From NCBI GenBank assembly GCA_032718475.1, contig JAUCBJ010005690.1, positions 1-56,921 on the forward strand: DNA of 56,921 nt, in the 5' to 3' direction. Origin of the DNA: Nemertoderma westbladi (Eukaryota; Animalia; Xenacoelomorpha). Of this stretch, positions 29,973 to 56,921 are shown piece by piece. The position numbers and the translations under genes were made by a program. The notes under the pieces are model-generated. The model was not told the origin of the DNA, did no database searches, and was given only the letters and a program-made list of their open reading frames with translations. Position 1 is the stretch's first letter. Each line of letters starts with the position of its first letter.

Positions 29973-30136
29973 AATAATCTCATAATTGTATTAAATTATA
30001 TTTAAAGTTTTTTTAGCCCAATTAACGCATATTATTTGGTGTCAATTTGTGCAATTACATACACCCCCCCCCCCCCCCGCACATGTTTCAATTTTACAAA
30101 TTCCGTAAAATACCCGTACCGTATATTACAGTAGTA

Positions 30137-31038: not shown

Positions 31039-31624
31039 TATTGGATTTGACTTGTTGATCATCATCTGAGGGCCAATTATACAATGGACTTCTAGAATAT
31101 TATTTATACTGATATATATTATTCATTTTTTATTTTGGTATTAATTAATATTCTAGAAGTGCATGATTTTATCTATGGTTTTGTGCTGAATGTAGTAGGC
31201 TACTGTAGGCCTATTATAATGATACTGAATAATATCAATTTCCATAAGTGCCAATATTTACTTGTCCTATTGTTAATCGCGTGTGATACTATAATCCTTC
31301 ATAGACTATGTCTAGAAGTCTACGAGCCCAGAAATATAGTTATCATCCTCGGGGTTTTGAGTAATTATGGGATATGTTTCATTTCATTTTATCAAAGGAA
31401 TTCATCAAGTCACGGCTGCTTTAATAAGATAGAAATATGTACAGTATGTATATCAATAAGCACAGCATATTACAGGCATATACATTTGTAGCGAGAGCTT
31501 GTAAGGAGCTCCTAAAGGGACATTAAAAAGAAACAACGCGAAATCGCGCAAAGGTCCGCGTCTACTAACGCATGAACTGTTTCCTTGAATGGCTTACTAC
31601 CAATCTTACAACAAAAAACATTCA

Positions 31625-31696: not shown

Positions 31697-32050
31697 GTAT
31701 CAATCCCTAATACCAAAAGCTAGCGAGAAATTAACAACAACACCAACACCAACAACAACGGAGTGAATACTAGAGGTCTCGCGGAAATAAAAAGCACATG
31801 ACCATGAATGCCAAGTTCGTCATTTTCGTCATTCAGTCACAAGTAATTGATTTTATGCTTAATTCACGGGGAGACAAATCAACAAGCTCTTCAAAAACTA
31901 AGGACGGAGTTAGTAACAACTATTTGATAAAAGAAAAGTTAGAAACATATTTTAATTTGACAGTTTTATTGGAATTAGTGAATTTTATTTGAGAGGGTGG
32001 GATATAGGTTTCCCTTGGACACTGGGATTATAAAAAGTCATAAGTGGCTA

Positions 32051-34842
32051 GTAGATTGGTAGCAGGTTCTTCTGTGGAGGTGGATTGGTAGCAGGCGGGT
32101 CTGTGGTTGGTTGATTGGTAACATGAAGGTTCTTCTATGGAGGGGAGGTGGATTGGTAGCAGGCGGGTCTGTGGTTGGTTGATTGGTAGTAGGTTCTTCG
32201 TTGGCTGGTGGATTGGTAGCAGGTTCTTCTGTGGAGGTAGATTTGTAGCAGGCGGGTCTGTGGTTGGTTGATTGGTTGCAGGTTCTTCTATGGATGTGGA
32301 TTGGTAGCAGGCGGGTCTGTGGTTGATTGATTGGTAGCAGGTAGGTTCTTCTATGGAGGTGGATAGGTAGCAGGCGGGTCTGTGACTGGTTGATTGGTAG
32401 GTGGTAGCAGGTTCTTCTATGGATGTGGATTGGTAGCAGGAGGGTCTGTGGTTGGTTGATTGGTAGCAGGTTCTTTTGTGGCTGGTGGATTGGTAGTAGG
32501 TTCTTCTGTGGAGGTGGATTGGTAGTAGGCGGGTCTGTGGCTCGTAGATTGGTAGTAGGTTCTTCGTTGGCTGGTGGATTGGTAGCAGGTTCTTCTGTTG
32601 AGGTAGATTTGTAGCAGGCGGGTCTGTGGTTGGTTGATTGGTAGCAGGTTCTTCTATGGAGGGGAGGGGAGGTGGATTGGTAGCAGGCGGGTCTGCGGTT
32701 GGTTGATTGGTAGCAGGTTCTTCTGTGGAGGTGGATTGGTAGTAGGCGGGTCTGTGGCTGGTAGATTGGTAGTATAGGCGGGTCTGTGGCTGGTAGATTG
32801 GTAGTAGGCGGGTCTGTGGCTGGTAGATTGGTAGTAGGTTCTTCGTTGGCTGGTGGATTGGTAGCAGGTTCTTCTGTTGAGGTAGATTTGTAGCAGGCGG
32901 GTCTGTGGTTGGTTGATTGGTAGCAGGTTCTTCTATGGAGGGGAGGGGAGGTGGATTGGTAGCAGGCGGGTCTGCGGTTGGTTGATTGGTAGCAGGTTCT
33001 TCTGTGGAGGTGGATTGGTAGCAGGTTCTTCTGTGGAGTTGGAATGGTAGTAGGCGGGTCTGTGGCTGGTGGATTGGTAGCAGGTTCTTCTCTGGAGGTG
33101 GATTGGTAGCAGGCGGGTCTGCGGTTGGTTGATTGGTAGTAGGTTCTTCGTTGGCTGGTGGATTGGTAGCAGGTTATTCTGTGGAGGTGGATTGGTAGCA
33201 GGCGGGTCTGCTGTTGGTTGATTGGTAGTAGGTTCTTCGTTGGCTCGTTGATTGGTAGCAGGTTCTTGTGTGGAGGTGGATTGGTAGCAGGCGGGTCTGT
33301 GGTTGGTTGATTGGTAGCAGGTTCTTCGTCGGCTGGTGGATTGGTAACAGGTTCTTCTGTGGAGGTGGATTGGTAGCAGGCGAGTCTGCGGTTGGTTGAT
33401 TGGTAGTAGGTTCTTCGTTGGCTGGTGGATTGGTAGCAGGCGGGTCTGTGGTTGGTTGATTGGTAGTAGGTTCTTCGTTGGCTGGTGGATTGGTAGCAGG
33501 CGGGTCTGTGGTTGGTTGATTGGTAGCATGCAGGTTCTTCTATGGAGGTGCTACCAATCCACCAGCCAGTTCTTCGTTGGCTGGTGGATTGGTAACAGGT
33601 TCTTCTGTGGAGGTGGATTGGTAGCAGGCGGTGCTGCGGTTGGTTGATTGGTAGTAGGTTCTTCGTTGGCTGGTGGTTTGGTAGCAGGTTCTTCTATGGA
33701 GGTGGATTGGTAGCAGGCGGGTCTGTGGTTGGTTGATTGGTAGCAGGTTCTTGTGTGGAGGTGGATTGATAGCAGGCGGGTCTGTGGTTGGTTAATTGGT
33801 AGCAGGTTCTTCGTTGGCTGGTGGTTTGGTAGCAGGTTCTTCTATGGAGGTGGATTGGTAGCAGGCGGGTCTGTGGTTGGTTGATTGGTAGCAGGTTCTT
33901 GTGTGGAGGTGGATTGATAGCAGGCGGGTCTGTGGTTGGTTAATTGGTAGCAGGTTCTTCGTTGGCTGGTGGATTGGTAACAGGTTCTTCTGTGGAGGTG
34001 GATTGGTAGCAGGCGGGTCTGTGGCTGGTAGATTGGTTGCAGGTTCTTTTGTGGCTGGTGGATTGGTAGCAGGCGGGTCTGAGGTTTGTTGTTTGGTAGC
34101 TGGTTCTTCTATGGTGGTGGATTGGTAGCAGGCGGGTCTGAGGTTTGTTGTTTGGTAGCTGGTTCTTCTATGGTGGTGGATTGGTAACAGGCGGGTCTGT
34201 GGCTGGTAGATTGTTTGCAGGTTCTTCTGTGGCTGGTAGATTGGTTGCAGGTTCTTTTGTGGCTGGTGGATTGGTAGCAGGCGGATCTGTGGTTGGTTGA
34301 TTGGTAGTAGGTTCTTCGTTGGCTGATGGATTGGAAGCAGGTTCTACTGTGGGGGTAGATTTGTAGCAGGCGGGTCTGTGGTTGGTTGATTGGTAGCAGG
34401 TTCTTCTATGGAGGTGGATTGGTAGCAAGCGGGTCTGTGGTTGGTAGATTGGTTGCAGGTTCTTTTGTGGCTGGTGGATTGGTAGCAGGCGGGTCTGTGG
34501 TTGGTTGATTGGTAGTAGGTTCTTCGTTGGCTGATGGATTGGTAGTAGGTTCCTCTATGGAGGTGGATTGGTAGCAGGCGGGTCTGTGGTTGGTAGATTG
34601 GTTGCAGGTTCTTTTGTGGCTGGTGGATTGGTAGCAGGCGGGTCTGTGGCTGGTGGGTTGGTAGCAGGTTCTTCTATGGAGGTGGATTAGAGCAGGCGGG
34701 CTGTGGCTGGTAGATTGGTTGCGGGTTCTTTTGTGGCTGGTGGATTGGTCGCAGGCGGGTCTGTGGTTGGTTGATTGGTAGCAGGTTCTTCTATGGAGGG
34801 GAGGGGAGGTGGATTGGTAGCATGCTGGTCTGTGGTTGGTTT
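32051..34842. repeat. Complex 29-30-bp G/T-rich minisatellite (~2.8 kb) with alternating monomer types
   Basis: Monomers GATTGGTAGCAGGTTCTTCTGTGGAGGTG, GATTGGTAGCAGGCGGGTCTGTGGTTGGTT and GATTGGTAGTAGGTTCTTCGTTGGCTGGTG. Confidence 0.97.
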
Positions 34843-34930
34843 ATCCACAATCAAAACAGTGATACTTGATATATTTATGGGCGTAGTTGACATGGGCGTT
34901 TAGACTGCCCTGCTGTCTGAATTATTTGTT

Positions 34931-36157
34931 TCAATAACCGCACATATGTTTGATTAGTTTATGGATATAGTCGACATGTTTTTTTAGATCACTTTTGGTA
35001 CCAAATGATTTTCCACAATCAAAACAGCTGTACTTGATATCTTTATGGGCGTAGTTGACATGGGCGTTTAGACTGCCCTGCTGTCTGAATTCTTTGTTAC
35101 AATAACCGCACTTATGTTTGATTAGTTTATGGATAGAGTCGACATGTTTTTTTAGATCACTTTTGGTACCAAATGATTTTCCACAATCAAAACAGCTGTA
35201 CTTGATATCTTTATGTGTGTAGTTGACATGGGCGTTTAGACTGCCTTGCCGGCTGAATTCTTTGTTACAATAACCGCACTTATGTTTGATATCTTTATGG
35301 GCGCAGTTGACATGGGCGTTTAGATGGTCTTGCCGGCTAAATTCTTTGTTACAATAACCGCACTTATGTTTAATTAGTTTATGGATAGAGTCGACATGTA
35401 TCTTTAGATGGCCTCGCTGGCTGAATTCTTTGTTACAATAAACGCACTTATGTTTTATTAGTTTATGGATAGAGTCGACATGTTTCTTTACATAACTCTT
35501 CGTTGTAAACAGTTTCTCACAATAATCGCATTTATACTTATTCTTGACGTCTTTATGAAAGGATTCTATATGTCTCTCTAAATTTTCTCTGCCATTAAAT
35601 AATTCATTGCAATGCGAACAGCAACTGGTAGGCCTATCTGGAGAAAATTGGAACTCCCCAACAGCTTTACTAGAACTACAGGGATCTGTTGTTGCAAAAC
35701 CGATTGCCGGTTTAGTAGAGCTGCAAAGATCAACGTTGTCACGAGAGGTACAGGTACCAGCAGTATTACATTGTTTTCGAACAGTTCGAGTTTCGGCAAA
35801 TGGATCAATAACTATACAACCTTCAGATTTTACACTAATAAATTGCAGCCCACAAGCTGAATGTTGAATATGAATATTTGCATCTTCAGTTTCAATAGGC
35901 CTACCATACGAACATTCTGGGCTGTCATTTTCCTGTTTTTCGACAACAAAATAATCTCCAGAAATATCTTCGTCATCTTGTACAGGGACATCATCTACTC
36001 CACCAAACAAATTGTTATGATTTTCGATAGATGATCCGTAAACGCAGTTCTCCTGTTTAACTTCAACAGGATTGGGGGCACAGTCTGGTGGTTCTTTCTT
36101 TATAATTATCCCGGCACTGGAGGATTTTTTCTTCAAAACATTAATTTGTTGATTCAT
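34931..36157 (-). CDS. C2H2 zinc-finger protein, 8 intact CX2C...HX4H fingers (29-aa/87-bp period), C-terminally truncated
   Basis: Repeated KCGYCNKEF....L..HV...H units; acidic N-terminus with IKKEP/VKQE motifs. First ATG at 36157 (36163 is TTG). The stop replaces the second Cys of finger 9. Confidence 0.9.
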   Translation of the reverse strand: MNQQINVLKKKSSSAGIIIKKEPPDCAPNPVEVKQENCVYGSSIENHNNLFGGVDDVPVQDDEDISGDYFVVEKQENDSPECSYGRPIETEDANIHIQHSACGLQFISVKSEGCIVIDPFAETRTVRKQCNTAGTCTSRDNVDLCSSTKPAIGFATTDPCSSSKAVGEFQFSPDRPTSCCSHCNELFNGRENLERHIESFHKDVKNKYKCDYCEKLFTTKSYVKKHVDSIHKLIKHKCVYCNKEFSQRGHLKIHVDSIHKLIKHKCGYCNKEFSRQDHLNAHVNCAHKDIKHKCGYCNKEFSRQGSLNAHVNYTHKDIKYSCFDCGKSFGTKSDLKKHVDSIHKLIKHKCGYCNKEFRQQGSLNAHVNYAHKDIKYSCFDCGKSFGTKSDLKKHVDYIHKLIKHMCGY

Positions 36158-36165
36158 TATCAAAT

Positions 36166-36225
36166 CTTAATACCGGTAATTATATAGGCCTATCAATAAT
36201 TATAATTATACAGGTGATTACTTAC
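36166..36225 (-). other. Putative 60-bp 5'UTR intron of the zinc-finger gene
   Basis: Minus strand G|GTAAGT ... AT-rich ... TTAAG|ATTTGATAATG, ending 8 nt before the ATG. Inferred from splice consensus only. Confidence 0.4.
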
Positions 36226-37891: not shown

Positions 37892-38862
37892 GGAACCGAT
37901 CCCAGCAATGCGAGCATCGAGTCTAAGTCCAACTAACCCTTGGTACTTGGACTTACACAATTAGAGTTCAAGGCGCTAATCTAATCTGTTGTTATTCGAC
38001 AGGCGGAATTTGATGCGGCGTTGGATTGTCGGAGGTGGTAGGGAAGGGAGGCCTTCCGGTGTACAAATAGGAGAGGAGGGTATGTAGGTCTGGAAATCGG
38101 TACTGTGCTTGATAGCTGGCTCGTGCCATTACCATATAGCACCACAGCCTAGAATTATGCAAACGTTAAATAGCCAGGATCAGAGGATGTTGGAAAAAAG
38201 AGCCATTATAAATCTCTGTTGGCTATACTGAATTAATTATCCAGGCAGCCAGGCGGCGGCAAACAGGAACAGGCAGACAGGTAGGCCTAGCATTAAACAA
38301 TAAACAATTAAGCATTGAATGAATTTAAGGTGTAAGGTAGGCCTAGCTGCCTAGTACCATTACTGCTGCGCATCCCGGGCCGGGGCTGACCCTGACAGCC
38401 TATAACAGATACCAGCTGTCACTCATTCTCACCTGGCATGGCACCTGAACCTCTGAAAATATTAGAGACAGCCTTAACAGATCTGCCACAGCCAATAGGA
38501 AAACAGTAATTAATCATCCAATCATAGCTCCCTTAGAATGCACTTCCACTAATGGCTCCACCCTCCCGTCAACCTTCATCTACAGTATATTCAACTTATT
38601 ACAATCTAATCCTGTACTTGTAATCTATGATACACCTGCGATACCGATTTGTTTTAAAATATGTATATTTCTATCTGAATGCACCCCACCTCCGCCTGCG
38701 TTGGCAAATATAGAGACGCAAATGCACTAACTCTGTTAGAAGAATGGCACTGTCCAAAATGTTTCGTAGAACTAAACTGGGAAGAATTTTAAAATGATAT
38801 CTAATTTGTCGAAATAAAAGCCGGGATTTATTTTAAAATTATTATTAATATTATTACAAACA

Positions 38863-39100
38863 TAAACAAATGATCTAGAAAAATATGGTGTTTTTATTTA
38901 ATAGAATAAAACAGCCTCGTGCAGGTGCAAAACTATTTGAACGCAACATTTGAACGCTCATATCTCAGCTATTTACCAACCACATTCACATGTTTTTACA
39001 TTTTTTGAATCCTTGCACGGTCAGGTTTCTACTCGTACCAACAAATCACGATAAGGATCAAGAATAACTGTAGTGTAACTGCAACTGGTGAAATATCACC
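38863..39100. mobile_element. Diverged fragment of one arm of the 30137-31038 foldback MITE family
   Basis: TTTTTATTTAATAGAATAAAA.AGCCTC, TGAACGCTCATATCTCAGCTATTT and CTGGTGAAATATCACC match 30645-30835. Confidence 0.8.
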
Positions 39101-41504: not shown

Positions 41505-41509
41505 GCCAC

Positions 41510-42169
41510 TGTGACGGGATCGGAGATCCCAACCGGGTTAGAAATGTACGCGTCACCGTTCTGCTGGGGATTGTGCTACTAGCTTTGGCCGAGGCCGTTT
41601 GGGAAAAACAGTGAAAGTTTCTGTTGTCTCTCGATATTAATTAATATGGACGATAATAGCACGCCAGTAGATAATAAGCAGAAAATATAGATTAATTGTT
41701 ACCGGTATGGTGGTGGCGGTCATTAACTATGACCGGTCTGCACTGACTGAACTGAATAATACAACTGACTGGTAAACCAGTAATGTAAGATAATATATGA
41801 TTAACACATTGAATATTGGTTTACCTCCTACTCTACTTTGGCCCTCTACCCAATGGATGCTTTCCTGTTCCCTATCACGTGCTTCCCTCCCCACTATTGG
41901 CTAATATACTACTTGTCACTTTGGCACTCCCTGGGAGTGTTTCCCCTCCGCTGCTAGCCTCTACTAGCTGCCTTCCCTCCGAGGTGGTTTGACCTCTCAC
42001 CTTTCTCTGTGGCTTTGGGGCTTGTGTCGCCCCCCCACCCCCCCCCCCCCCCCCAATGTTGGTTATGATACGAGATTAATATTGGTAATCTCGTATCCCC
42101 AACATATTGCTAAAATGCCACTAGTCCCATTTTCTGGTGGGTAATGAAGTGGAATTGAATCCGCATACA
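41510..42169 (-). repeat. 3' LTR (660 bp)
   Basis: TGTGACGGGATCGG...GAATCCGCATACA, a direct repeat of 53827-54423 with an extra 55 bp (41929-41983). Confidence 0.96.
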
Positions 42170-42180
42170 CTCCCCCCCCC
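42170..42180 (-). other. Polypurine tract
   Basis: Minus-strand G-run plus AG immediately before the 3' LTR. Confidence 0.85.
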
Positions 42181-42647
42181 ATGCTATCTTCCCGGTGAGA
42201 AGATAGCATCAACTTTAAGTGCGCTTCAATTCCGCTGGAACCCAAACTACTATCGGGTGTGGGGTGGAGTTATTTTCTCTGTACACGTCAACACCTCCTC
42301 TCCATACTTACCTCATACTCCTATACTCAACCCATGCTTGTTTCACTCCACTCACCCCCGACGAGCCTCACCCTCCCCTTTTGTGCCATCGCACTCAAGA
42401 AGTGTGATTCGTCTAGTGTCCCGTCCTCCTGTCATAGTGAATTGGTCCCCAGTCCCAGTAGCTAGTTGGAAAAAGGTTATATATGACTATAGTACTTACT
42501 TTGATTATATTCATTCTAATTATATTATAATTATATTGATTATTACATACGTACATACTAATTGCACTTAATTATTTTGCACTTAGGAGTTCGTATTATT
42601 TCCACATGTGGTACCTTCCAGGCACGCCCACTCTCCCCCTCTGAGTC

Positions 42648-45146
42648 CTAGTTCGCTCCTCCCGTCTTCGGGAACCATCTTAGGTCTTTCCCTCTAGCAT
42701 CCTCCTGTCTGGGCCGCTTCCTTCCCTCTGGTTTGTCCTCTCTGAGACTCCTCATTCTCGCCGTTACCACCTTGCTAATTCCTGTGGTCGATTCTTCGGG
42801 TGCTGGTGTTATTAACTCCCGGTAACGCTTTGCAGGTGGCCCTTCCGAATGCCCCTCCTGCTTCCCCCTGGTAGCGTCCCACAAGATCATTTTCATGGTT
42901 TGCGGCACGTGTTCCACCTGAAAGTCCCTAAACTCTCCTCTGTTTTCTGGCGTCCATCTATCCAAATACCTCTGCGTGTTGATGACTCCTCCATACGACG
43001 CCGCTGTAGCTACCTCTTGGTATGTAAATGGCAGTCTCCTCTTGATAATCTCCAGATGGGCTTCCTGATTGATGTTGAAGAAACCCCACCGGAACTCCTG
43101 GGCCTTCATCCTCTGTTGCGTCATAATGCTGATGTCGGCCCACTCCTCAAAGATCTTAAACTTCTCCTCGTCGTCCATCCAGTCGCACTGGCACCCATAG
43201 TGCCCTCGGGAGTTACACTTAGAGCAGCGGTTGTGCAGCCTCGGACATGCTCCCATCCCATGGCTCGACTCATGGCAGTAGAGACAACTCGTCCCCTTCT
43301 GAAATCGATACAAACAGCTCTTTTCCTGGTGAGTCAGCCTCCCGCAGTAATCACAGCCGTGTATTAACGCATCCCGCCCCAAGTCGTCTTTTGCCCCGAG
43401 CGGTCTCCTAGGTCTGTGGAGCCGTTGGTAGGCAAATAACATCTCTTTCCATATCCACGTTCTCCTCCCGTCTTGGCATCGTCTCTCCAAACACTACCCG
43501 TGGTGCCATTCCCGGTTGCTCACCCAACCTGATGATGCTCCCCGCAAAGTCCATCGCCGGCTCCTCGTGCACCCAGGTCTGCTTGCCGGGCTTATCCCAG
43601 AAGGCCCTCGCCCCGCTGGCCGTCACCACTCTCCCGCCCACCCTGTCCGTATCTAAGTGGCCGAACTCATCTTCATCCTCTTCCCTCGCTGGGAGTGGAT
43701 CCAGACCCGGTAGACCCACTATGCCACTTTCTGGCTTGGCTTCTACCCGTAACTTCCCATCCTTCCTGTTCCCTCGGTCTCTTTCTTACGGAATCGCCCT
43801 CAGAGCCCACTGGCATGGGCATCGCTTGCAATCCCAATGTCGACTGTTTCGGCGATTCTTCCGTCCATCCTAGCTCCTCTCCCAGAAACTCGCCCGAGCT
43901 CCCTGATCTCCACCTCAGCTCGTCCAAGTTCTGGGCCTCGAACCCGTAATCCTCTCCCCTAACCTCCGCATCTCTCTCATCTGCCTCCCTCCTTTCTCGC
44001 CTGGCGACTTCCTCCATTCGCTTCTCCTCAAGTCTATCCGCTTCCAGCTTATCCCATCCCTTGTATGGTGTATCCACCTCCCTGTCTACTAGGTGCTGGC
44101 TGTTGTAGTATACCGACTCGCCCTTCAGCCCTGGGTGGTCTACCAGACCTTTGAAGGAAACCTTAAAGGCTCTTCTGTAGTTTAGCGGTGATCCTGATAG
44201 CAGAAACGCCATCGGCTCTCTTCCAATAACCACGGCCATGAATAGGTTTAGTAAACCTATCATTATCCAATCCTCCTGACATGTCTCTTCTGATATATCT
44301 TTATCATTCCTCTCCGGAACTGATACACCTCCTGTTTCCTTGGCCTCGCTCCCCACTTCAGCGAGTTCGCCAGCTCCGCTAATTACTCCTCCCGGAACTT
44401 ACCCCAGTCCATCGGCTTGTGGCAGACGAGCCCCATGAGTTGACCCATCACCACTGCTCTGCAATGTCCTGTGTTCTCTACCAATCCCAACCCGTCTGGC
44501 CCTGTCATGGCCATATAGACCGCTTGCATGTCCAGGAGGTTGGCGGTCTCCGGTCCGACGATCCTCTCCGCATCGTTGCGGATCGCTGATCCCACCTTCA
44601 CCATTGTCTTCTCTCTTACTAGGTCTTGCACTGCCCTTGGCAACCGGTTTAACTTCGGCCTGCTCTTCTTGCCGTACATTCCTAGATCGAATAGGAATAT
44701 GTCTCCATTTGGCGCAGACAAATGCATAGTATGGTTCTAGCCGATCCTGCCGACCCTCTTCTTGAACCCTCTTCGTCCTCCACAGTCCCTTTGTCGTCTA
44801 GGACCATGTATCCTCCCCTGTTCACAGACTCTACAAACCTCCTCCAGTCCTTTCTCGGTGGTTCTATCGGATACTTCGGTATCCCGAACTTTGCTTCGTC
44901 TCCTTTCACTATGTAGCAAAAATGCTTGAGGATTGCATTGTCCAGCGACGGTGTCCCATAGGTCCCGACCAGTCGTCTCTCGTGCATCTCCCTTAAGTGG
45001 TCCTGCAGTGCTCGCGCTTTGTGACCCTTCGCTAGCGGCTCGTAGTATCCCCTTGTCTTCTCCTCCGGATGCCTTTGCGTGAAGTCCACTAGTATCTCCT
45101 TTCCACTCCTCTCCGTCTTTCTCTTCTTAACAAGTCTCTCCGCCAT
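42648..45146 (-). pseudogene. Extra ORF of the LTR element: DEDDy-like 3'-5' exonuclease domain plus three CCHC zinc knuckles (frameshifted)
   Basis: HLSAPNGDIFLFDL...LPRAVQDLVREKTMVKVGSAIRNDAE...NLLDMQ resembles the WRN/RNase D exonuclease core; QKR.CQEDW resembles ExoIII. Knuckles: CDYCGRLTHQEKSC, CLYCHESSHGMGAC, CSKCNSRGHYGCQC. Confidence 0.65.
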
Positions 45147-45674
45147 TACGAACTTCCTCGCTCGCTCACCTGCTTGCTGGTGCCTTGCCAAGGCTCAAGT
45201 AGATGAGTGACGTTTAGTAGGATGGTCTGTACTGGTTAAGTAATGGCCTATCTCTCTCAAATGCTAAATTTGTAGTATATTTTTACCTATACGCCCCGCA
45301 AAGTGCCAATTTCCTAAATTTCCTAAATCTGTCAGTTACTTTTATTATGTTCTAGAATCTTTTACTTACTGTTACGATAATTTGTCAGATTTACTTCTAA
45401 TACTATTTTATTTTATTTTTTTGTTAGTATGCTATTATCGCTTATGGTGGGTTATTTTATTTAGATAACCCATATGGTTTGTATACAGGGTAGACTAGCT
45501 ATTCTCTACTGTGCTAGTCCGTCCAGGTAGCCTCCTGGCCCTGTATCAAACATCCTAACTTACTCTATGGGCCATGCAGTACAGTAGTCTGTCTCATGCG
45601 GCCTACATGGTCTATCCTGCTGTACCCACGTGCCCCCCTCTCTATTTCGTGGCGCTCTCTATGCCCACAACCTC

Positions 45675-46335
45675 TACGGTACTACATACCCTGCTACTGC
45701 TACTCTTATGATACATCTATATACCATATTCTTTACTCTCTTACTACTAACTCTTACCAACTCTACTAACTCTATCGGTACTACATACCCTGCTACTACT
45801 CTCATGGTATGATTATATGCCACACTCCCTATACTTCTAACTCCTACCAGCGGTACTATGTACCCTGCCACTACTCTCGTGGTATGCCAAGATACCACAC
45901 TCCCTATACTTTTAACTTCTACCAGCGGTACTATGTACCCTGCCACTACTCTCGTGGTACGTCAATATACCACACTCCCTATACTTCTAACTTCTACCAG
46001 CGGTACTATGTACCCTGCCACTACTCTCGTGGTATGTCAATATACCACACTCCCTATACTTCTAACTTCTACCAGCGGTACTATGTACCCTGCCACTACT
46101 CTCGTGGTATGTCAATATACCACACTCCCTATACTTCTAACTACGGTACTATATACCCTACTACTCTCGTGGTACGTCAATGTACCACACTCCCTAACTT
46201 CTGCCTACGGTACTATGTACCCTACTACTCTTGTGGTACGTCAATGTACCGAACCCCCTAACTTCTGCCTACGGTACTATGTACCCTACTACTCTCGTGG
46301 TACGTCAATGTACCACACTCCCTAACGTCTGCCTA
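45675..46335. repeat. Tandem repeat (75-bp and 64-68-bp units) between pol and the extra ORF
   Basis: CGGTACTAT(G/A)TACCCT starts at 45851, 45926, 46001, 46076, 46144, 46208 and 46272. Confidence 0.93.
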
Positions 46336-46494
46336 CTTACTTAGTGTTACGCACTATCTACTACTATTACTTTGTAACTTTCTACTACCTCACTTCTTAA
46401 TTTTATTATTTTATTATTTTTTTATATTTTGTGTGGGAAGGGCGTCTCTCCCTCATTCCCAGCCCCCTCAGTCCAACATTTGGACGACTGAACT

Positions 46495-49400
46495 CTAAGG
46501 TGCCCCTTCTAATAGGCAGCACTTTCCTACAGCCCTCCTGTAGGTCTTCCTGTCCTTTGCTCCTATCTTGCCTCCTATTCTCACTTCCACCGACCGGACT
46601 CTTCCGTCCTCGTCGGGGTAAGTATCTACCACTCCCGCTAGCCTCCACTGGTTATTTATAATTGTGTCGTCAGTAACGATTACCAAGTCACTTTTCTTCA
46701 GCTCCCTAGTGGTGTTTCTCCACTTACTCCTCCTGTGTAATGTGGGAAGATATTCCTCTACCCATCTCCTCCAATACTTGACGCTTATTGCCTTGGCGAC
46801 TTTCCAACTTTGGCGGGAATGTATGTCGTCTGGGTCTACGCCCCGCATGTCGATGGTCGCCGGCCTCTCCATCAGAAAGTGTCCCGGTGTTAGCACGTCC
46901 AGTGATTCTGGGTCGTCATTCTCCGGATATAGCGGTCTGCTATTAATGATTCCCTCGCACTTGGCAAGCACCGTTCTTAGTATGTCCTCTGTGACCATGT
47001 GGGTGTTCATCAACTTCGTCATTAAACGCTTAGAACTTCCCACAAGTCTCTCTACACATCCTAAGGTATGTGGTGTGTACGGTGTCCTCCTTTCCCACTT
47101 CACTTGCCATCTCCTCATAGCCACCCTGACATCTTCTCCCTCCAGGATGTTGAAGGCCTTGGCCAACTCGTTCTCTGCTCCAACGAAGTTGGTCCCGTTA
47201 TCTGAATAAATCACCGCGATTGTTCCCCCTTTGCGGTCTCTAAATCTCTCTAAGGCATTAATAAATGCCGATGCCGTAGCGTCCTGCGCGAGTTCTATTC
47301 CTACCGCCCTCGTATTGTTGCATACGAAGATAATGCCGTGGCGTTTCTCCGTGTGTCGCATCACCTTAATCTTAATCGGCCCGAACATGTCTATGCCGCA
47401 GTGTGTGAATGGCGGGTCGTGTTGTCTCACTATGTTGGCCGGTAATGGCGCCATCTCCTGTATGGCCCTCTCCTTTCTCACCCTTCGGCAGGTCTGGCAC
47501 TGCCCCACTACCGCCTTCACCTTCTTCCTAAGTTGCGTGATCCAGAATGTTCTTCTTATCTCTGTGAGGGTCTGATTCGTGCCTCCATGTAGTATCAACT
47601 TATGCGAGTCCCAAATGATTTGGTGGACTATCGGTGATTTGTTAGGAATGATTATGGGTTTCGGTGGGATAACTAGGCTGTTGTTGTTCACCACTCTGGA
47701 ATTCATCACCAGAATCCCATCATCATTCAACTGTGGGGACAGCATGTTGAGCTCGCTGTCTCGACGAAGGTGTTGTTGCTTGCTAACTCTATCCACTTCG
47801 TCGGCGTAGTTCTTTCTCTGCTCGTACCGTATTACGGCTTTAGCCACTCCTTCCAGATCGATGTTTGGTTTCCTTTTGGCATCCTTGCCAACTCCCCTAA
47901 GGAAATCCCCGTAGACCTTCCAATACACTACCAACTTCTTGGTCTTATACCAGCTGGAGCTGTAACTGAGCAACCTATCTGTCGGGTTGTCGCATGGTTC
48001 TTCTAATTTCGGTGGCACCTCCTTGATCTCCCTCACTATCTGGCTGTATATCTCTTCCCCTTCTGAATCTTCCCCCTCTTCTTCTGGTACTACTTCCTCT
48101 GAGCCCTGGTCCACCTTCCTCATTGGTGGCCAGGCTGATCTATCGCTCAGGAAGTGTGGCCCGTGCTGCCACAACACTTCCTTCTTCGAGAAAGTGTGGC
48201 ATGCCACGCCCCTCGATAACAAATCTGCTGGGTTGTCGTCGGTAGGGCAGTAATGCCACCTATCTAGGTCGGTCATCGCCCTTATCTCGTCTACCCTATT
48301 CGCGACGAATATAGGGTATCTCGTCTTCTCATTATGCAGCCACCCTAGCACTACCATGGAGTCCGTCCAGTAGTGTGTCTCCACTATGTTGGGTATAGTG
48401 TCCATCAAGTAGGCTGTGGCCCTTACTCCTAACCTCGCAGCTGTCAACTCGAGTTTCGGGACTGACCCTGATTCTGGTGGCATCGACTTCGCTTTACTAA
48501 ATGCAAGTCTGGGCTTATGAACCCCCTTTCGCTGTACCAGATAAAGTGCCGCTCCATACGCTTCTAAAGATGCATCAGAAAACATATGTAGATCCAGGTC
48601 CGTCATGTCCCCGTCCGGGAAATACACGCGTGGCATGCTGTACATCCCCATCTGTTCTAGACTTCCCGTCCACTTACTCCACTGTTTGCTTATTTCTTCC
48701 GGGACCTCCGTATCCCACTCGTCCTTCAACTTGTATACTTTCTTTAGTATCTGCTTCCCTGTGACTAACAATGGGGATGCTAGGCCTAAGGGATCGTATA
48801 TCCTTGCTATGTACAATACATAGCCTCGCTTTGTGTGGATCTCTGCGCCCTCCTGGCTTAGTTGATACTCCAACTCATCCGTCTCCCGGTTCCACACAAT
48901 CCCCAGCGCCTTCTGCTGAGACTCCACTCTCTTGTTCGCCATGTCCTGTCCCTTCGCTGTTGTGGGGTTGCCCATGGTCGACTCTGGCCGCCTGTCTTCT
49001 ATGGCTTTCATGAACTTCTCTGAGCTGGACTGGAACTTAGTCAGGTTGAATCCGGATCCCTTTACGATATCGCGAACCTCGCACCCTATATCCAGTATTT
49101 CTTCAACCGTGTTTCCAGATCCCATCCCATCGTCTATCTAGAAACCGCATCGAATCATGTCGATCGACTTGGCACTATACTCTCCCTCTTTCCCCTCTAC
49201 CGTATCTCTCACAGCCAGAGTCGTCATAAATGAGGATGACTTGGCCCCCATGTTTTGCACCACCATCTTGTACATCGGTATCGCAGACGGTTCCTCGTCA
49301 CCGTTATACCACAGGAAGCGCTGGCTGTCACTGTCCTCTTCCGTCACACAGACTTGGTTGAACATGCCTTCGATGTCGCACGTGAAGGTGTGCCTCCCAT

Positions 49401-50540
49401 TCCTAAATCTCAACAAGACCTCTATCCCCAAGTTGTAGATGTTGGGGCCCTCCAGCAGATAGTCGTTAATAGGCTCTTGCCATTCGTTTTGGCCGATGCA
49501 TCAACCACCATCCGCAGTTTACCCTTCTTTGGGTCTAAAGCCACATGAAGTGGCAGGTAGTAGGTCCAGTCCGTGTTCGGTTCGTCGACCGGTAACTCCA
49601 CGGCCCATCCCTTTTCCATGTATTTCTTTATTGTCTTATGGATCTACTCATCCTACTCGGGGCTCTGTCTGAGTGTTTGCTTCAGTTTGCAAAGCCTCTT
49701 GAGTACCATCCCTTTATTGTCAGGCAACGGTAGTTTTGGTTGGTTGTTTCCACACCATGCCTATGGTGTACCATCCCTCGTCGCACTTCATCGACTCCTT
49801 CATGCTTTCTATTGCTTGTTTATCCTCTACCGAGGTTCCGACCCCGGCCTCCTTTAATCCTTCGAAGTCCTCTCTTAACAGCCTCTTAAGCTGCTCTTTT
49901 GATCCTTCATCCTCCATCTCCCTCATGGTCCCCGCGAACATGCACCCCGATGTCTCCGACACCCTGAATGGAATCTTGGTTTTGATTGGGCCGCTAAGTG
50001 TTCATCCGAACGGTGTGAGAACTGCCATTGGATCACGCTGCCTGTCCTCTCCGAAGATTGTTCGTACTCTCTCGTGGGCCATCGGACAGTCCATCCCCAC
50101 TATGATGGATACCTTCCGGACGTCCACTTCCGGTATCGAGAAATCGATTTCATCCAGGAATCTGTATTACTCGACCTCGTTGTTAGTTGGTCGCCTGGCA
50201 TTTATGTTGATCGATTCTATTACCTGAATGGGGTCGATGGTCGCCCCATAGTCACATCCCAGTGCTATTGCTGATATCTCGCACCTTCCCGTCCTCATCT
50301 CCAGGACCTCATCCAGGATCTCCAGTTACTGCCATCCTGCTCGGCCTCGTCTGTAACTTTATCTCCTCGGCCACCCAATTCTGCACCAATGTGAAGGCTG
50401 CTCCATGGTCGACCAGCATCAACGTGGTAATTGATCGACCGCTTTCTCCCATTACCCTCACCGGTACCGCCCCGAGTAGTACCATTCCCCTTCTCTTCGC
50501 ACCTACGGTGCTTGTCGCCATCGTTTTGCCTTTGCCTTGA
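46495..50540 (-). pseudogene. BEL/Pao pol (protease, RT, RNase H, integrase); 46495-49125 is still open (876 aa)
   Basis: PR LVDHGAAFT; RT YLPLH, KLRMVVDAS, CDIEGMFNQV, F*IDD (TAG at 49138-49140 replaces the Y of YxDD); RH LHMFSDASLEAYGA, PKLEL, WTDSMVVL; IN H..H..CQTC, GIDMFGP, SDNGTNFVGA, ERLVG. Confidence 0.95.
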
Positions 50541-53500
50541 CCGAATATAATTGGTGTCTCTTTACATTGCTCAGCCTTGTGTCTGCCTGCCACACATCGA
50601 TGACAGATTCCACTTTCGTTCGCGTATTCTAGCTGATCTTGTTTGGGTAATGCTTGCCAGTACCTGCAGTTCATGGTCTGATGATTGATGAAGTGCGTTC
50701 GAAAGTAATTGGCATTTGTTTCTCGGATTATAGCCTCCCCTATATAGCACGCTCCGTATCGCACGTACATTCATACTTAGCTCTCTACTGTTCTTATTAT
50801 TTGGGTTTGGCCTACTGGGCGTGTTGGGGCTGTATTTATTTGTGTTATTATTTTGTCCCTGTCCATGCCATGGTATGGCCCTACCCCCGGCTATCTCTGA
50901 ACTAGCAGTCCTCTGCGTCGTCGCGTATGGTAGCGATTGTCTGAGCTTTGGTAATGCATTTGCCGCATTATGTTCTGGTTTCAGCCTGCTATATTCGGTC
51001 TTCCGGATCTAATCCCGTTGTTCGCGCTACCCAATCGCCTACACTATCTCTTCCAGCATGGCCTATAGTATGTGCAGTAAGGCCTACAGTATGTCCTGCA
51101 GTCTGCCTATGTCCCTCCAGACCGAAGTGTAATCTTCTCGAATATTCCAAGAAGTCCTCCCCGCGACCACCGTACTCTCGATCGGCAACTATATCCCGTC
51201 GGGAAGTTTCTCTGCAATCCCCTCTTCTGTCCTCGTCCTCGTACCGGTACATCCTGTACCCTTCTCCCGGCGTATGGTATATCTTGCCAGGCTGCATCTC
51301 TCCGGGGCGACGGCAATCTCCCGGAGTTCGACCCCACTGACTCTCTAACTCCATCTCTGCCACCGACGGTTCGCTGTCCAACCTCGCTCTCCGGTTGCTC
51401 GTAGCAACGCTTCTTCTATTCTCTTCACTTCTTCTCTCCTCAGTGTAGCACTCCCGCTAATAAGATCTCTCTTCGACCTCCCGTTTAAACTCTACTGTTC
51501 TTCTTCCATCTTCCGACTGGGCTCAACGTCACATCGCTCGCCCGCTCACAGCACCAACCTCTCTCTCTCTCTAGCCGGTTGGACGCTCCTGGGGATACTC
51601 GCAATCCCCCTACTATTCTCCGTCGTCGGGTGCCGCGGTTAACCTAACTCTCCCCGCGCATTATCCGCCGATGCTTGTGGGGCATTCTCTGCCGCCCCCC
51701 CCCCCCCCTCTCACCACTAATCTCCCGTGGTGGGGCACCCGTAGCCCCCCCCCCCCCATTCACCACCTCTTACTTCGCTACCTCCTACTTCGCTTCTACG
51801 CCCCTCTCTAGTCGATGCATTATCTCTACTGTGGCTGGGTCTACTCACCCCCGCCTCTCCCTGTGCGACTGTGTGGCCTTGCAGGCTCCCATCGGGTTGA
51901 CTCACCCCCGCTACTCCCTGCCTAACTACATGGCCTTGCAGGCTCCCATTGGGGCGACTCACCGCCGCTACTCCCTGCATAACTACATGGCCTTGCAGGC
52001 TTCCGTCGGGTTCACTCACCCCGCTACTCCCTGCACAACTATGTGGCCTTGCAGGCTCTCGCTGTCCGGACTACCTGTGTCCCCTACATTCGTTTTAATA
52101 GCACCGTTATCAATAATATTGTTATCTAAATTATTTAAATTATTTAAATTATTTTGTTCGGATTTGTGGTTATTATTTGGATTACTTTGTACATTTAAAT
52201 TAGAATTATTATTTGGATTATTTTGTGTGTCTAAATTAGTGTTATTATTTGGATTACCGGTATTTTATGCGTTTAAATTAATATTATTTGGATTATTTTG
52301 TATGTTTAAATTAGTATTATTATTATTTTGCACATTTGAATCAAAATAACTATTACTGGGTAAAACATTATTTCCTGCAATAAAGGTTTGATTAGGGTTG
52401 TCTACTACAGTACTATTAATATTAATTCTTTCTAACGTATTATTATTACCCCCCCCCCCCCCTCCCCCCCCCGTCCATACGGTTACAACAGTCCTGGGTC
52501 TGTCGTCCAGTACCTGTAAGTAGGGTATTAACAAATGTTTCCATTACTTCGGGCTCCCCATAAATACTACCCGAACCGGCCTCACTCTCAGATAATCCCA
52601 ACTGCGCCAGTTCTAATCGGCGCTTTTGCTTTGTCTGGTATTGCATAAGCCCGCTTAACCGGGTATGCATATCATCCCGCATACGCTTTCCCGTTCTCTC
52701 TCTCTCTCTGTCCTCTCGCAAACTTTGGTCGGCCAACTCTGCCTCTCTCGCAATCCTCTCAAGCCTCCTCGCCTCATGCTCCTTGCGCTCGCTCGCCTCT
52801 CTCGCCTCTCGCTCTTTACATTCCCTTAATTCCCTCTCCTCACCCTCTCTAAAGTTCCTCGCGACCCTCTCAGCCATCTCTTTACTCTCTCTCACTAACT
52901 CTCTCTCTTTCTCTAATAATGCGGTTCCCTCATCCAATTGCCTCTCCAACTCTTTCTGGTCCAACGCCATCATATCTAGTTGACACGCCAGATCTATCTC
53001 TAACACCCTAACACCTAACACCTCTAACACCAGGATGTAGCGGACTTTTCACTCACAACGGACTCCCGTCGCCTCTCCGTCCTACTAACTTTCCCCCGCT
53101 TTCTGGGGTTCTCGCTAACCGACGACACCGAATCCTCGGGGTTAATCTCGGGTTCGCCGTCGTGCGGGTCCGCCCAACCCACTAGCTTAATTCCCCTAGC
53201 ATCCACTAAGTAAGGCTACACTACATCTGGATCACCACAATTCAAACAGTTCCGTGGCGACCCCCCTCGCTCTCTCACCTGCCAGTTCTCCCTGTCCAAA
53301 TGGACTAAATAGTGGAACTGTTTATTCGACTCACCTAGCCTCTGATATAGTTTAGGCTGGTCTACCTTTCTCCCTTCTTTGGCCTCCTTAAGTAACTTCT
53401 TGGTGACGTTGTAGGCCCGTCGTAGCCGATCACTCGTCCCGACGTCCTCTTCGCCAACTCCTCCTCCTCTCCTTGTCCGGCATCGTACCAGCGGCCCCAC

Positions 53501-53773
53501 TGTCGCCGTTCTGGTGGGCCATCCATCGCCCTCGGCCTGTGGCTGGCTGGCGACTTCGGTACTCCGACCGCCGTCATGCGTCGACTCGTCTCCCTCTCGT
53601 GGTTGACGGCCGCCCTCCTCTTGGACAGCCGGATCGTCTCTCGTTGGCGAATCCAGCGTGGGAGGCCGATACCGTCTTGTCGCAGCCTCACGGATTGTTT
53701 GGTTGGTGTCGTCCGGGGTCCGCGGCGGCGTCCTCTCTCCCTCTGATAATCGGGGCGTTCCTTCTTCCGCCAT
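50541..53773 (-). pseudogene. gag-like region of the BEL/Pao element, multiply frameshifted
   Basis: ATG at 53773 just inside the 5' LTR; E/R-rich coiled coil, low-complexity tracts and a Zn knuckle (CHRCVAGRHKAEQC) upstream of the protease. Confidence 0.75.
51843..52060. repeat. 57-bp (19-codon) tandem repeat within gag, ~4 copies
   Basis: ACTCACC starts at 51843, 51900, 51957 and 52014; encodes (GSLQGHVV.QGVAGVS.P.)n on the minus strand. Confidence 0.9.
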
Positions 53774-53826
53774 CTTTCTATTTTCTCTTCGCAGTCACAG
53801 TTTATTGGCAGGTGGCAGTTAATGAC

Positions 53827-54423
53827 TGTAACGGGATCGGAGATCCCGACTGGGTTAGAAATGTACGCATCACCATTCTGCTGGGGATCGTGCTACTAGC
53901 TTTGGCCGAGGCCGTTTGGGAAAAACAGTGAAAGTTTCTGTTGTCCCCTCGATATTAATTAATATGGACAATAATAGCACGCCAGTAGATAATAAGCAGA
54001 AAATATAGATTAATTATTACCGGTATGGCGGTGGCGGTCATTACCTATGACCAGTCTGCACTGACTGAACTGAATAATACAACTGACCAGTAAACCAGTA
54101 ATGTAACATAATATATGATTTACACATTGAATATTGGTTTACCTCCTACTCTACTTTGGCCCTCTACCCAATGGATGCTTTCCCGTTCCCTATCATGTGC
54201 TTCCCTCTCCACTATTGGCTAATATACTACTTGTCACTTTGGGACTGTGGTTTGACCTCTCACCTTTCTCTGTGGCTTTGGGGCTTGTGTCCCCCCCCCC
54301 CCCCCCCCAATGTTGGTTATGATACGAGATTAATATTGGTAATCTCGTATCCCCAACATATTGCTAAAATGCCTCTAGTCCCATTTTCTGGTGGGTAATG
54401 AAGTGGAATTGAATCCGCTTACA
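53827..54423 (-). repeat. 5' LTR (597 bp)
   Basis: TGTAACGGGATCGG...GAATCCGCTTACA followed by the TSD GCCAC. Confidence 0.96.
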
Positions 54424-54428
54424 GCCAC

Positions 54429-54845: not shown

Positions 54846-54915
54846 AAAATGTTATAGTACATTATGATAATGCTCTCCATAGCGAAAAATATCAACCGCC
54901 CCTATTGGGGCTCGA

Positions 54916-54959
54916 ACCCGGTACCTAGGTTTCAAACTTCCGGTTATCATCAGCTGAGT
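54916..54959 (-). ncRNA. Type I hammerhead ribozyme, copy 1 (weakened stem I)
   Basis: ACTCAG CTGATGA TAACCGGAAGTTT GAA ACCTAGGT A CCGGGT; stem I has an A-C mismatch and a U-G pair. Confidence 0.7.
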
Positions 54960-55262
54960 GTGTGTCCTAAGACCACTGAGCTACCAGGGCGGTAGAAGAT
55001 TTATTCGCTATGGAGTGGGGTATCATTTTTAGGCCTTTTTACGTCACTCATAGTAAAGTACAACGTTATTCCCGAGCTCTGCCAGAAATGGCAACCATGC
55101 CTCAAAGAATAACTATTATACAGTGTTGTAGAAACCACTGTAACCCCGTATGCCGGCCATGCGTGTTAATTAATTATAAATGAATTGTTGTGGGGAGGGT
55201 GACGGCGAATTAAATAAATGTTATAGTACATTATGATAATGCTCTCCATAGTGAAAAATATC

Positions 55263-55362
55263 AACCGCCCCTATTGGGGCTCGAACTCGGTACCTAGGTT
55301 TCAAACTTCCGGTTATCATCAGCCGAGTGTGTGTCCTAAGACCACTGAGCTACCAGGGCGGT
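55263..55362 (-). promoter_or_regulatory. Pol III type-2 internal promoter cassette in each 369-bp unit (copy 2 shown)
   Basis: A box TAGCTCAGTGG (55352-55342), B box GTTCGAGCC (55286-55278), closing stem ACCGCCCT/GGGGCGGT, T5 run a few nt downstream. Confidence 0.7.
55285..55328 (-). ncRNA. Type I hammerhead ribozyme, copy 2
   Basis: ACTCGG-CTGATGA-T AAC CGGAA GTT T-GAA-ACCTAGGT-A^CCGAGT: perfect 6-bp stem I, intact core, palindromic stem III, GUA cleavage site between 55291 and 55290. Confidence 0.85.
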
Positions 55363-55653
55363 AGAAGATTTATTCACTTTGGAGTGGGCTATCATATATA
55401 GGCCTTTTACAGTCACTCATAGGAAAGTACAACGTTATTCCCGTGCTCTGCCAGAAATGGCAACCATGCCTCAAAGAATAACTATTATACAGTGTTGTAG
55501 AAACCACTGTAACCCCGTATGCCGGCCATGCGTGTTAATTAATTATAAATGAATTGTTGTGGGGAGGGTGACGGCGAATTAAATAAATGTTATAGTACAT
55601 TATGATAATGCTCTCCATAGTGAAAAATATCAACCGCCCCTATTGGGGCTCGA

Positions 55654-55697
55654 ACTCGGTACCTAGGTTTCAAACTTCCGGTTATCATCAGCCGAGT
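55654..55697 (-). ncRNA. Type I hammerhead ribozyme, copy 3
   Basis: Identical to copy 2. Confidence 0.85.
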
Positions 55698-56022
55698 GTG
55701 TGTCCTAAGACCACTGAGCTACCAGGGCGGTAGAAGATTTATTCACTTTGGAGTGGGCTATCATATATAGGCCTTTTACAGTCACTCATAGGAAAGTACA
55801 ACGTTATTCCCGTGCTCTGCCAGAAATGGCAACCATGCCTCAAAGAATAACTATTATACAGTGTTGTAGAAACCACTGCAACCCCGTATGCCGGCCATGC
55901 GTGTTAATTAATTATAAATGAATTGTTGTGGGGAGGGTGACGGCGAATTAAATAAATGTTATAGTACATTATGATAATGCTCTCCATAGTGAAAAATATC
56001 AACCGCCCCTATTGGGGCTCGA

Positions 56023-56066
56023 ACTCGGTACCTAGGTTTCAAACTTCCGGTTATCATCAGCCGAGT
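56023..56066 (-). ncRNA. Type I hammerhead ribozyme, copy 4
   Basis: Identical to copy 2. Confidence 0.85.
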
Positions 56067-56391
56067 GTGTGTCCTAAGACCACTGAGCTACCAGGGCGGT
56101 AGAAGATTTATTCACTTTGGAGTGGGCTATCATATATAGGCCTTTTACAGTCACTCATAGGAAAGTACAACGTTATTCCCGTGCTCTGCCAGAAATGGCA
56201 ACCATGCCTCAAAGAATAACTATTATACAGTGTTGTAGAAACCACTGTAACCCCGTATGCCGGCCATGCGTGTTAATTAATTATAAATGAATTGTTGTGG
56301 GGAGGGTGACGGCGAATTAAATAAATGTTATAGTACATTATGATAATGCTCTCCATAGTGAAAAATATCAACCGCCCCTATTGGGGCTCGA

Positions 56392-56435
56392 ACTCGGTAC
56401 CTAGGTTTCAAACTTCCGGTTATCATCAGCCGAGT
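56392..56435 (-). ncRNA. Type I hammerhead ribozyme, copy 5
   Basis: Identical to copy 2. Confidence 0.85.
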
Positions 56436-56760
56436 GTGTGTCCTAAGACCACTGAGCTACCAGGGCGGTAGAAGATTTATTCACTTTGGAGTGGGCTATC
56501 ATATATAGGCCTTTTACAGTCACTCATAGGAAAGTACAACGTTATTCCCGTGCTCTGCCAGAAATGGCAACCATGCCTCAAAGAATAACTATTATACAGT
56601 GTTGTAGAAACCACTGTAACCCCGTATGCCGGCCATGCGTGTTAAATAATTATAAATGAATTGTTGTGGGGAGGGTGACGGCGAATTAAATAAATGTTAT
56701 AGTACATTATGATAATGCTCTCCATAGTGAAAAATATCAACCGCCCCTATTGGGGCTCGA

Positions 56761-56804
56761 ACTCGGTACCTAGGTTTCAAACTTCCGGTTATCATCAGCC
56801 GAGT
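56761..56804 (-). ncRNA. Type I hammerhead ribozyme, copy 6
   Basis: Identical to copy 2. Confidence 0.85.
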
Positions 56805-56921
56805 GTGTGTCCTAAGACCACTGAGCTACCAGGGCGGTAGAAGATTTATTCACTTTGGAGTGGGCTATCATATATAGGCCTTTTACAGTCACTCATAGGA
56901 AAGTACAACGTTATTCCCGTG

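Follow-up and report, generated by a model that had tools for sequence, protein, structure and literature searches.

Introduction

What might a retrotransposon do with a nuclease of its own? The question is raised by a 56,921-nucleotide contig from the xenacoelomorph Nemertoderma westbladi (JAUCBJ010005690.1 of GenBank assembly GCA_032718475.1, positions 1 to 56,921 of the forward strand; hereafter the window), which carries a long terminal repeat (LTR) retrotransposon, assigned here to BEL/Pao, with a third open reading frame (ORF3) in the position of env. In an initial annotation, made by a model from the letters of the window, this frame had been read as a DEDDy-like exonuclease joined to three zinc knuckles. 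The type of cargo has already been published: among the accessory domains already known from LTR elements is the DEDDy exonuclease (PMC6338049), and DEDDy ORF3s have been described in the Juno and Vesta LTR retrotransposons of bdelloid rotifers (Rodriguez, Kenefick and Arkhipova, 2017; PMC5408684), as the initial annotation had noted. These low-copy rotifer families are the one described precedent for an exonuclease cargo in LTR elements, and came without a function or a sign of selection. New in the window are the BEL/Pao host, the likely fusion to knuckles, the high copy number and a selection signal. A second case with these last two properties, in a different superfamily, suggests that the cargo pays for itself.

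Exonuclease Likeness of the Third Open Reading Frame

ORF3 lies on the minus strand between pol and the 3′ LTR, 1.35 kb past the pol stop. It starts with an ATG at 45146, ends with a stop at 42648 and measures 833 codons overall, divided among six pieces; the broken same-strand coding region of about 2.5 kb noticed by the initial annotation falls entirely inside the LTRs. The frame changes at four places (about 44728, about 44280, somewhere in 43673-43785 and somewhere in 43408-43493), and a single stop, at 44383-44385, is in frame. The first piece (44730-45146) has a basic N-terminus (KKRK at 45128) and an ExoI-like strand; beyond the frame change at about 44728, the second (44386-44727) holds the DEDDy-like core with an ExoII-like KVG...D and an LLD; and the stop together with the third piece (44267-44385) encloses the frame change at about 44280 and an ExoIII-like region recognised by pattern only. 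On the minus strand, every motif that had been named occurs where stated: YMVLDDKG (44810-44787), IFLFDL (44700-44683), KVGSAIRND (44598-44572), NLLDM (44541-44527) and, in the QKR.CQED region, YQKR (44295-44284) and QEDW (44278-44267).

Two methods independently arrive at one family, and for one and the same piece, which disfavours a likeness by chance. In the ESM Atlas the 117-residue piece 44386-44736 reaches a top score of 0.95 (177 of 256 features); 29 of its 30 matches fall in the PF01612 set, and PF01612 is carried by 17-24% of the members of the top clusters. A profile built from 50 natural bacterial proteins of the WRN/EXD2 type matches the exonuclease region, read with an X at each break, with an E value of 3.9e-5 that none of 5000 shuffled sequences equalled. 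Among 681 six-frame pieces of the window the exonuclease piece (44736) ranks first with this profile (E 0.0067), followed by a piece at E 0.94. The scores with other profiles were reached by shuffled sequences in 25/2000 (RNase D), 377/2000 (Pol I) and 3/2000 cases (mixed profile), and the WRN/EXD2-type class appears to suit the region better than does RNase D or Pol I. The alignment to the mixed profile sets ExoI, the following strand and ExoII in order, and within ExoII the residues K47, G49 and D55 of the K-V-G-x5-D pattern are invariant in a 47-row alignment. An earlier profile labelled WRN-like was discarded: most of its members were short proteins of the RNase D type, KVG occurred in 2 of 40, and its score was attained by 26 of 2000 shuffles. 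The likeness of piece 44386-44736 to DEDDy 3′-5′ exonucleases thus seems to be beyond chance but weak. That the domain adopts a DEDDy-type fold, as first proposed, is very probable given the Atlas and profile matches, both of which point to a DnaQ-like fold; the activity itself is a prediction.

Several results weigh against this assignment. The Atlas score of 0.95 is also reached by one in 100 shuffled proteins; the profile was picked after the KVG motif had been seen, its match spans about 41 residues, and hhalign gives that match a probability of about 6%. ExoI and ExoII are separated by about 75 codons, compared with 59-61 in the bacterial set, and ExoII and ExoIII by about 101, compared with 69-72, which requires an insertion of about 30 residues. 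Because both spacings are longer than the bacterial ones, by about 15 and about 30 residues, ExoIII is the weakest assignment; the motif is placed as the initial annotation had it, and its identity rests on a pattern (Y-x3-D) of which the Asp, at 44272, lies behind a frame change and the Tyr is absent in this copy. Pfam, including PF01612, matched none of the exonuclease-region pieces, which are broken pieces of a decayed copy, and neither phmmer against 1.84 billion representatives nor two word-based protein searches returned a relative of the exonuclease piece; the DEDDy ORFs of the rotifer Juno, Vesta and Athena elements were likewise absent from the results of these searches. Sequences of the PDB (one chance match, E 0.64), metagenome contigs, and phages and plasmids (best E 5) likewise gave no relative of this piece, and viral contigs scanned for WRN/EXD2-type proteins yielded none.

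The Pfam and structure checks that had been proposed therefore came out divided, with no family match, a single-sequence AlphaFold model of the exonuclease piece at a predicted local distance difference test score (pLDDT) of 35, and an alignment-led model that is compatible. In the latter, residues 31-80 have a pLDDT of 80-86, while from residue 97 (97-142) it falls below 50, a further point on the opposing side. The top structural neighbours of this model have Z scores of 5.8-4.9 and are headed by EXD2 (Z 5.8, root-mean-square deviation 4.8, 78 residues aligned), after which come an exosome containing Rrp6, then Egalitarian and WRN, with EXD1 also a neighbour and a best Foldseek E value of 4e-3, whereas TREX1 ranks low (Z 2.8). 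These matches indicate compatibility only, because the model follows the alignment that was supplied and the reasoning is circular.

Zinc Knuckles and the Build of the ORF3 Protein

Downstream of the exonuclease region, pieces four and five (43408-44266) comprise a hydrophobic helix following ExoIII, a charged, coiled-coil-like and acidic linker, and an RKRP at 43786. The three zinc knuckles (43185-43355) follow, with CX2CX4HX4C patterns starting at 43355, 43286 and 43226, as the initial annotation had seen; the sole other knuckle of the window is that of gag. In 20000 shuffles of the 281-residue frame a single knuckle arose seven times and two never did. The region matches zf-CCHC_4 of Pfam with an E value of 0.006, below the cut-off, and its ESM Atlas neighbours are CCHC proteins at scores of at most 0.88, a lead only. 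We conclude that the three predicted CCHC knuckles are real. The C-terminus (42648-43184) has about 100 residues that match no known family and then a basic tail with KRYR at 42830 and RKRP at 42722 before the stop. ORF3 probably encodes a single protein of about 830 residues that unites exonuclease and knuckles; three of the four frame changes (those other than 43408-43493) were compared with other copies, and the one-protein reading is limited accordingly.

The position between pol and the 3′ LTR would suit an env-like protein, a candidate that was considered and rejected. The best 19-residue hydropathy window reaches only 1.65, in the helix following ExoIII, and the other four pieces tested stay below 0.8, which makes an env-like protein unlikely; moreover, no Pfam glycoprotein matches the ORF3 pieces, the N-terminus is basic, and there is no convincing membrane anchor. 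The basic clusters at 45128, 43786, 42830 and 42722 resemble nuclear localisation signals, by pattern only.

Other Copies of the Element and Selection on ORF3

The initial annotation had left it to other copies to decide whether ORF3 belongs to the element. Contigs of four public DNA runs (X1, X2, X3, and X5), which share one species label and represent at most three samples (X1 and X3 being one sample) and at most three studies, were aligned to the element and covered it in 30 of 30 bins in all four runs. The exonuclease region, 621 bases in length, is covered by 1241, 829 and 894 contigs in X1-X3 and by 5 in the fourth run, and since hundreds of contigs cover this region, ORF3 is repeated with the element. 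It is a trait of a high-copy family and not peculiar to this copy. The two outcomes that would have refuted the initial annotation, no DnaQ-like match and no ORF3 region in other copies, thus did not occur. Over ORF3 the contig depth sums to 0.55-0.64 of the pol value, depth being no measure of copy number.

Not all copies have the complete frame. A minor sub-family joins 44384/44393 to 42313/42322 before the 3′ LTR (depth 46-274) and so skips about 2 kb of ORF3; the joint ties the exonuclease sequence to the end of the element in other copies. In further copies 52469-52472 or 51712 is connected to 54290, within the 5′ LTR. The 52469-54290 and 42313-44393 joints represent either sub-families with internal deletions or insertions nested in LTRs.

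Most of the damage seen in the window belongs to this copy. Place 44383, within the stop, differs in 82-94% of contig depth, and at 44280-44283, where the frame changes, additional letters are present in other copies. Contig depth collapses at 44725 and 43726 (to 142-320 at 43726), beside two further frame changes. In ExoI, this copy reads D-D-K where D-x-E is expected, a departure that the initial annotation had pointed out; the place 44792 in the Lys codon (44792-44790) differs in 93%, 97% and 97% of the depth of X1-X3. In the ExoIII region, place 44283 differs in all of the depth of X1, X2, X3 and X5, although depth is low there. Private to this copy, then, are the stop, one of the frameshifts and the two places at which it departs from the catalytic pattern; because both departures are its own, we infer that the family keeps that pattern.

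Codon positions point in the same direction. Of 91 variant places 40 were listed and 37 used (44280, 44725 and 44768 were dropped), and the removal of 6 beside breaks left 31. Places that vary among copies (share below 0.8) fall on third codon positions in 13 of 15 cases (binomial p 3e-5 against one third), compared with 7 of 16 among places private to this copy (Fisher p 0.023); at share thresholds of 0.85 and 0.9 the counts are 14/17 and 16/19. The third-position bias of the varying places makes it highly probable that the family ORF3 is under purifying selection in active lineages, with decay after insertion. Against this stands the nature of the test, which counts places (31 of 91 variant rows) with a crude depth weight and is neither a ratio of nonsynonymous to synonymous rates nor set against a pol control.

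The Host Element

The element is bounded by paired LTRs, which in a self-comparison of the window form the only long pair of direct repeats enclosing the region, and spans 12,914 bp on the minus strand. The 5′ LTR (53827-54423, 597 bp) and the 3′ LTR (41510-42169, 660 bp) both have TG...CA ends; the latter includes stretches of about 55 bp and 9 bp that the former does not have, and the two differ by a Kimura two-parameter distance of 0.043 over 603 aligned columns. Identical 5-bp target-site duplications flank the element on its minus strand (upstream copy 54424-54428, downstream copy 41505-41509), and a G-rich polypurine tract (about 42170-42180) abuts the TG of the 3′ LTR at 42169. In this single copy of 12.9 kb, no primer-binding site starting with TGG is present in the first 50 bases past the 5′ LTR, where BEL/Pao elements have one for tRNA-Arg or tRNA-Gly. 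Contigs of other copies show joints of 53755 to 41508, with an intervening stretch between. The distance from the 5′ LTR to the first ATG is only about 50 bases (53770-53826).

The gag and protease region (50298-53773) is spread over many frames, with the gag knuckle at 50605 and an aspartyl protease-like stretch at about 50330-50470 that matches Asp_protease_2 with an E value of 7.5e-4, below the family cut-off of Pfam. This region is lengthened by 57-bp and 36-bp tandem repeats (51843-52324), of which the 36-bp unit reads as Asn-rich. The pol region (46495-50001) consists of reverse transcriptase (RT) pieces, identified by eye from the translation and without a Pfam match, followed by an 880-residue frame (46495-49137) with RNase H/Peptidase_A17, integrase and DUF5641 domains; in Pfam this frame matches PF05380 (E 3.4e-39), PF18701 (E 1e-22) and PF17921 (E 9.7e-11). 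The RT catalytic motif is interrupted by a stop at 49138-49140. Since gag and RT are fragmented and the stop lies in the RT catalytic motif, this copy is full-length but dead.

The domain order gag, protease, RT, PF05380, integrase, PF18701 is that of BEL/Pao, and the best 120 of 355 relatives of pol all carry PF05380, the top ones being 34-36% identical (best E 2e-142, at 34%). The element is accordingly classified as a member of BEL/Pao (Belpaoviridae), and the LTR pair, the 5-bp duplication and the pol domains bear out what the initial annotation had recognised from the letters. In a tree of the window pol and 45 of its top matches, built with no outgroup, the window pol has the longest terminal branch of the 46 sequences (1.30 substitutions per site), which indicates a divergent BEL/Pao lineage. 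Belpaoviridae are described by the ICTV as 4.2-10 kb long, a descriptive range, with LTRs of 0.2-1.2 kb (PMC8742986); the excess of the present element over that range is made up of ORF3, the spacer before it and the repeat-expanded gag region.

The pol-ORF3 spacer (45147-46494, minus strand) is 1.35 kb of non-coding sequence with A/T-rich tracts and a tandem array. The array has 7.7 copies of a 75-bp unit at about 45776-46336 and may be a regulatory or RNA-structure element. A scan with Rfam found no match in the spacer, which possibly contains an internal promoter or a splice acceptor.

An assembly chimera or a nested insertion was also considered as the origin of the unusual build and is unlikely: no internal repeat pair brackets ORF3, and other copies join ORF3 coding sequence to the region preceding the 3′ LTR.

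Predicted Function and Alternative Explanations

The reading that we favour, tentatively and at somewhat less than an even chance, is that the ORF3 protein is a trans-acting trimmer of RNA 3′ ends that blunts small-RNA silencing of the element. Because a non-coding spacer of 1.35 kb lies past the pol stop, ORF3 would be made from its own messenger RNA, apart from gag-pol, and its product would act in trans; the sub-family without the last 2 kb or so of ORF3 fits a gene that is not needed in cis. CCHC knuckles of the CX2CX4HX4C spacing bind single-stranded RNA, and those of ORF3 may hold such an RNA and feed its 3′ end to a two-metal exonuclease site, while the basic motifs may direct the protein to the nucleus. 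The WRN/EXD-type class includes EXD1, Egalitarian, MUT-7 and Nibbler, of which MUT-7 and Nibbler act in small-RNA pathways. In the least certain step, the protein would trim or destroy the ends of host silencing RNAs or of their precursors. A viral exonuclease used against host defence is known in the ExoN of arenaviruses (PMC7968707). Two considerations count against an RNA trimmer: EXD2 acts on DNA and RNA (PMC6648332), so that the exonuclease class does not name the substrate, and CCHC knuckles, being nucleocapsid-like as well, might carry the protein into particles. A fuller scenario is unlikely to hold in all its parts: a BEL/Pao lineage that branched off deeply would have picked up an active exonuclease joined to a triple RNA-binding knuckle, a one-chain analogue of a host RNA-trimming machine, would have retained it under selection, and would use it as an enzyme that suppresses silencing by PIWI-interacting or small interfering RNAs, enabling both the high copy number and the deletion derivatives that ride along.

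ORF3 could instead help the element to replicate, with the knuckles packaging element RNA and the exonuclease trimming or proofreading the 3′ ends of reverse-transcription products. This is unlikely, yet has several points in its favour: the nearest class in the profile and in the alignment-led model is WRN/EXD2, and EXD2 acts on DNA too (PMC6648332); the element is long, with 12.9 kb against 4.2-10 kb (PMC8742986); the ExoN of nidoviruses proofreads long genomes (PMC7968707); and the DEDDy domain of the Dada transposon is thought to process 3′ ends (PMC3706591). Set against these, ORF3 is separate from gag-pol, so that its packaging would take an extra step, the best 120 of 355 pol relatives have no such domain in their own sequences, and the word exonuclease is absent from the main text of surveys covering BEL/Pao (PMC3118150, PMC8556966, PMC6238403), whose supplements may hold unannotated cases; as neither these relatives nor the surveys show one, BEL/Pao elements replicate without an exonuclease. 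The less likely proposal of a role on the element's own RNA, in its maturation, protection or Egalitarian-like transport with or without catalysis, draws on the 3′-end processing of element RNA suggested for the rotifer DEDDy ORF3s (PMC5408684), on the presence of Egalitarian and EXD1 among the neighbours of the alignment-led model, and on the resemblance of exonuclease plus CCHC knuckles to Rrp6 with Air1/2, for which there are Atlas leads. However, pure RNA carriers such as Maelstrom and EXD1 lose their catalytic residues (PMC5408684), whereas the departures from the pattern seen here are private to one copy, and no binding site was identified in the element RNA.

TREX1 clears retroviral cDNA and prevents the triggering of nucleic-acid sensors, and ORF3 might in the same way remove surplus or abortive element cDNA from the sight of host sensors, or attack competing elements. 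The trans-acting anatomy agrees with this, and so does the existence of an immune-suppressing viral ExoN (PMC7968707), but TREX1 is a DEDDh enzyme with a Z score of only 2.8 against the model, and three RNA-type knuckles would be left without an explanation; we regard cDNA clearance as very improbable. No more probable is it that the exonuclease likeness arose by chance or is vestigial, ORF3 being real but encoding another protein or a passively carried gene fragment. The exonuclease piece without a Pfam or sequence match, the single-sequence model at pLDDT 35 and the one shuffle in 100 that attains the Atlas score would all agree with such a history; the collinear motifs and the agreement of two independent methods on family and piece argue the other way, and the codon-position bias speaks against passive carriage. 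Copies with and without the 3′ two-thirds of ORF3 make it testable whether animal retrotransposons carry anti-small-RNA enzymes or proofread reverse transcription.

Comparison With Known Systems

Juno and Vesta are Ty3/gypsy-like, whereas the element of the window is BEL/Pao. All have a DEDDy-type ORF in the env position that is detected by sensitive searches only and has no membrane anchor (PMC5408684). ORF3 of the window, with about 830 codons, has three CCHC knuckles, while the available text on the rotifer elements mentions no more than a DEED variant and, in Vesta2 and Vesta5, a Cys-His-Cys motif (PMC5408684). The window family is high-copy and shows a selection pattern, in contrast to the extra ORFs of the rotifers, for which no significant departure from neutrality is given in that text (PMC5408684). 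DEDDy ORFs are also carried by the Terminons of the Athena group, which are another class of element (PMC6431247), and Dada has a DEDDy domain that is inserted in its transposase (PMC3706591); the available text of these two sources describes no fusion to knuckles. Within BEL/Pao, Tas, Roo and mosquito elements with a Chuviridae glycoprotein are known to have a third ORF after pol and before the 3′ LTR (PMC8742986, PMC13524379), yet these third ORFs encode env-like glycoproteins and that of the window a protein predicted to be soluble and nuclease-like. In the literature covered, which left Repbase, Dfam, GyDB and most subscription journals outside its scope, neither a BEL/Pao exonuclease ORF nor an ORF3 combining exonuclease and knuckles was found.

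Among cellular proteins, WRN-exo, EXD2, EXD1, Egalitarian, MUT-7 and Nibbler (PF01612) share with ORF3 the KVG...D of ExoII and the order of strands and helices. Identity to the bacterial WRN/EXD2-type set is 17-26%, with insertions. The exonuclease of ORF3 is followed by three knuckles, where the cellular relatives have helicase, HRDC or MUT7-C domains.

Other Features of the Window

Positions 1546-25284 of the window are taken up by a 24-kb satellite with a 13-bp unit and a likeness of about 95% in the stretch that TRF scanned. It is followed on the minus strand by an uninterrupted frame of 343 residues (26221-27252) that resembles the iron-sulfur scaffold ATPase NUBP1/Nbp35 (PF10609, E 5.5e-91); apparently intronless, it may be either a host gene or a retrocopy. 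At 30135-31040 lies a 900-bp palindromic element whose nested inverted repeats include an outer 54-bp pair with 100% complementarity, and which has a related piece at 38852-39081; it has the look of a miniature inverted-repeat transposable element or a foldback element. The minus-strand region 32044-36166 contains a C2H2 zinc-finger frame, with seven fingers matched, and then a 2.75-kb minisatellite of 30-bp units whose translation gives Pro/Thr-rich repeats and changes frame many times. Upstream of the retrotransposon, 5.6 copies of a 369-bp tandem repeat, 99% alike, fill 54847-56921 and run off the end of the window.

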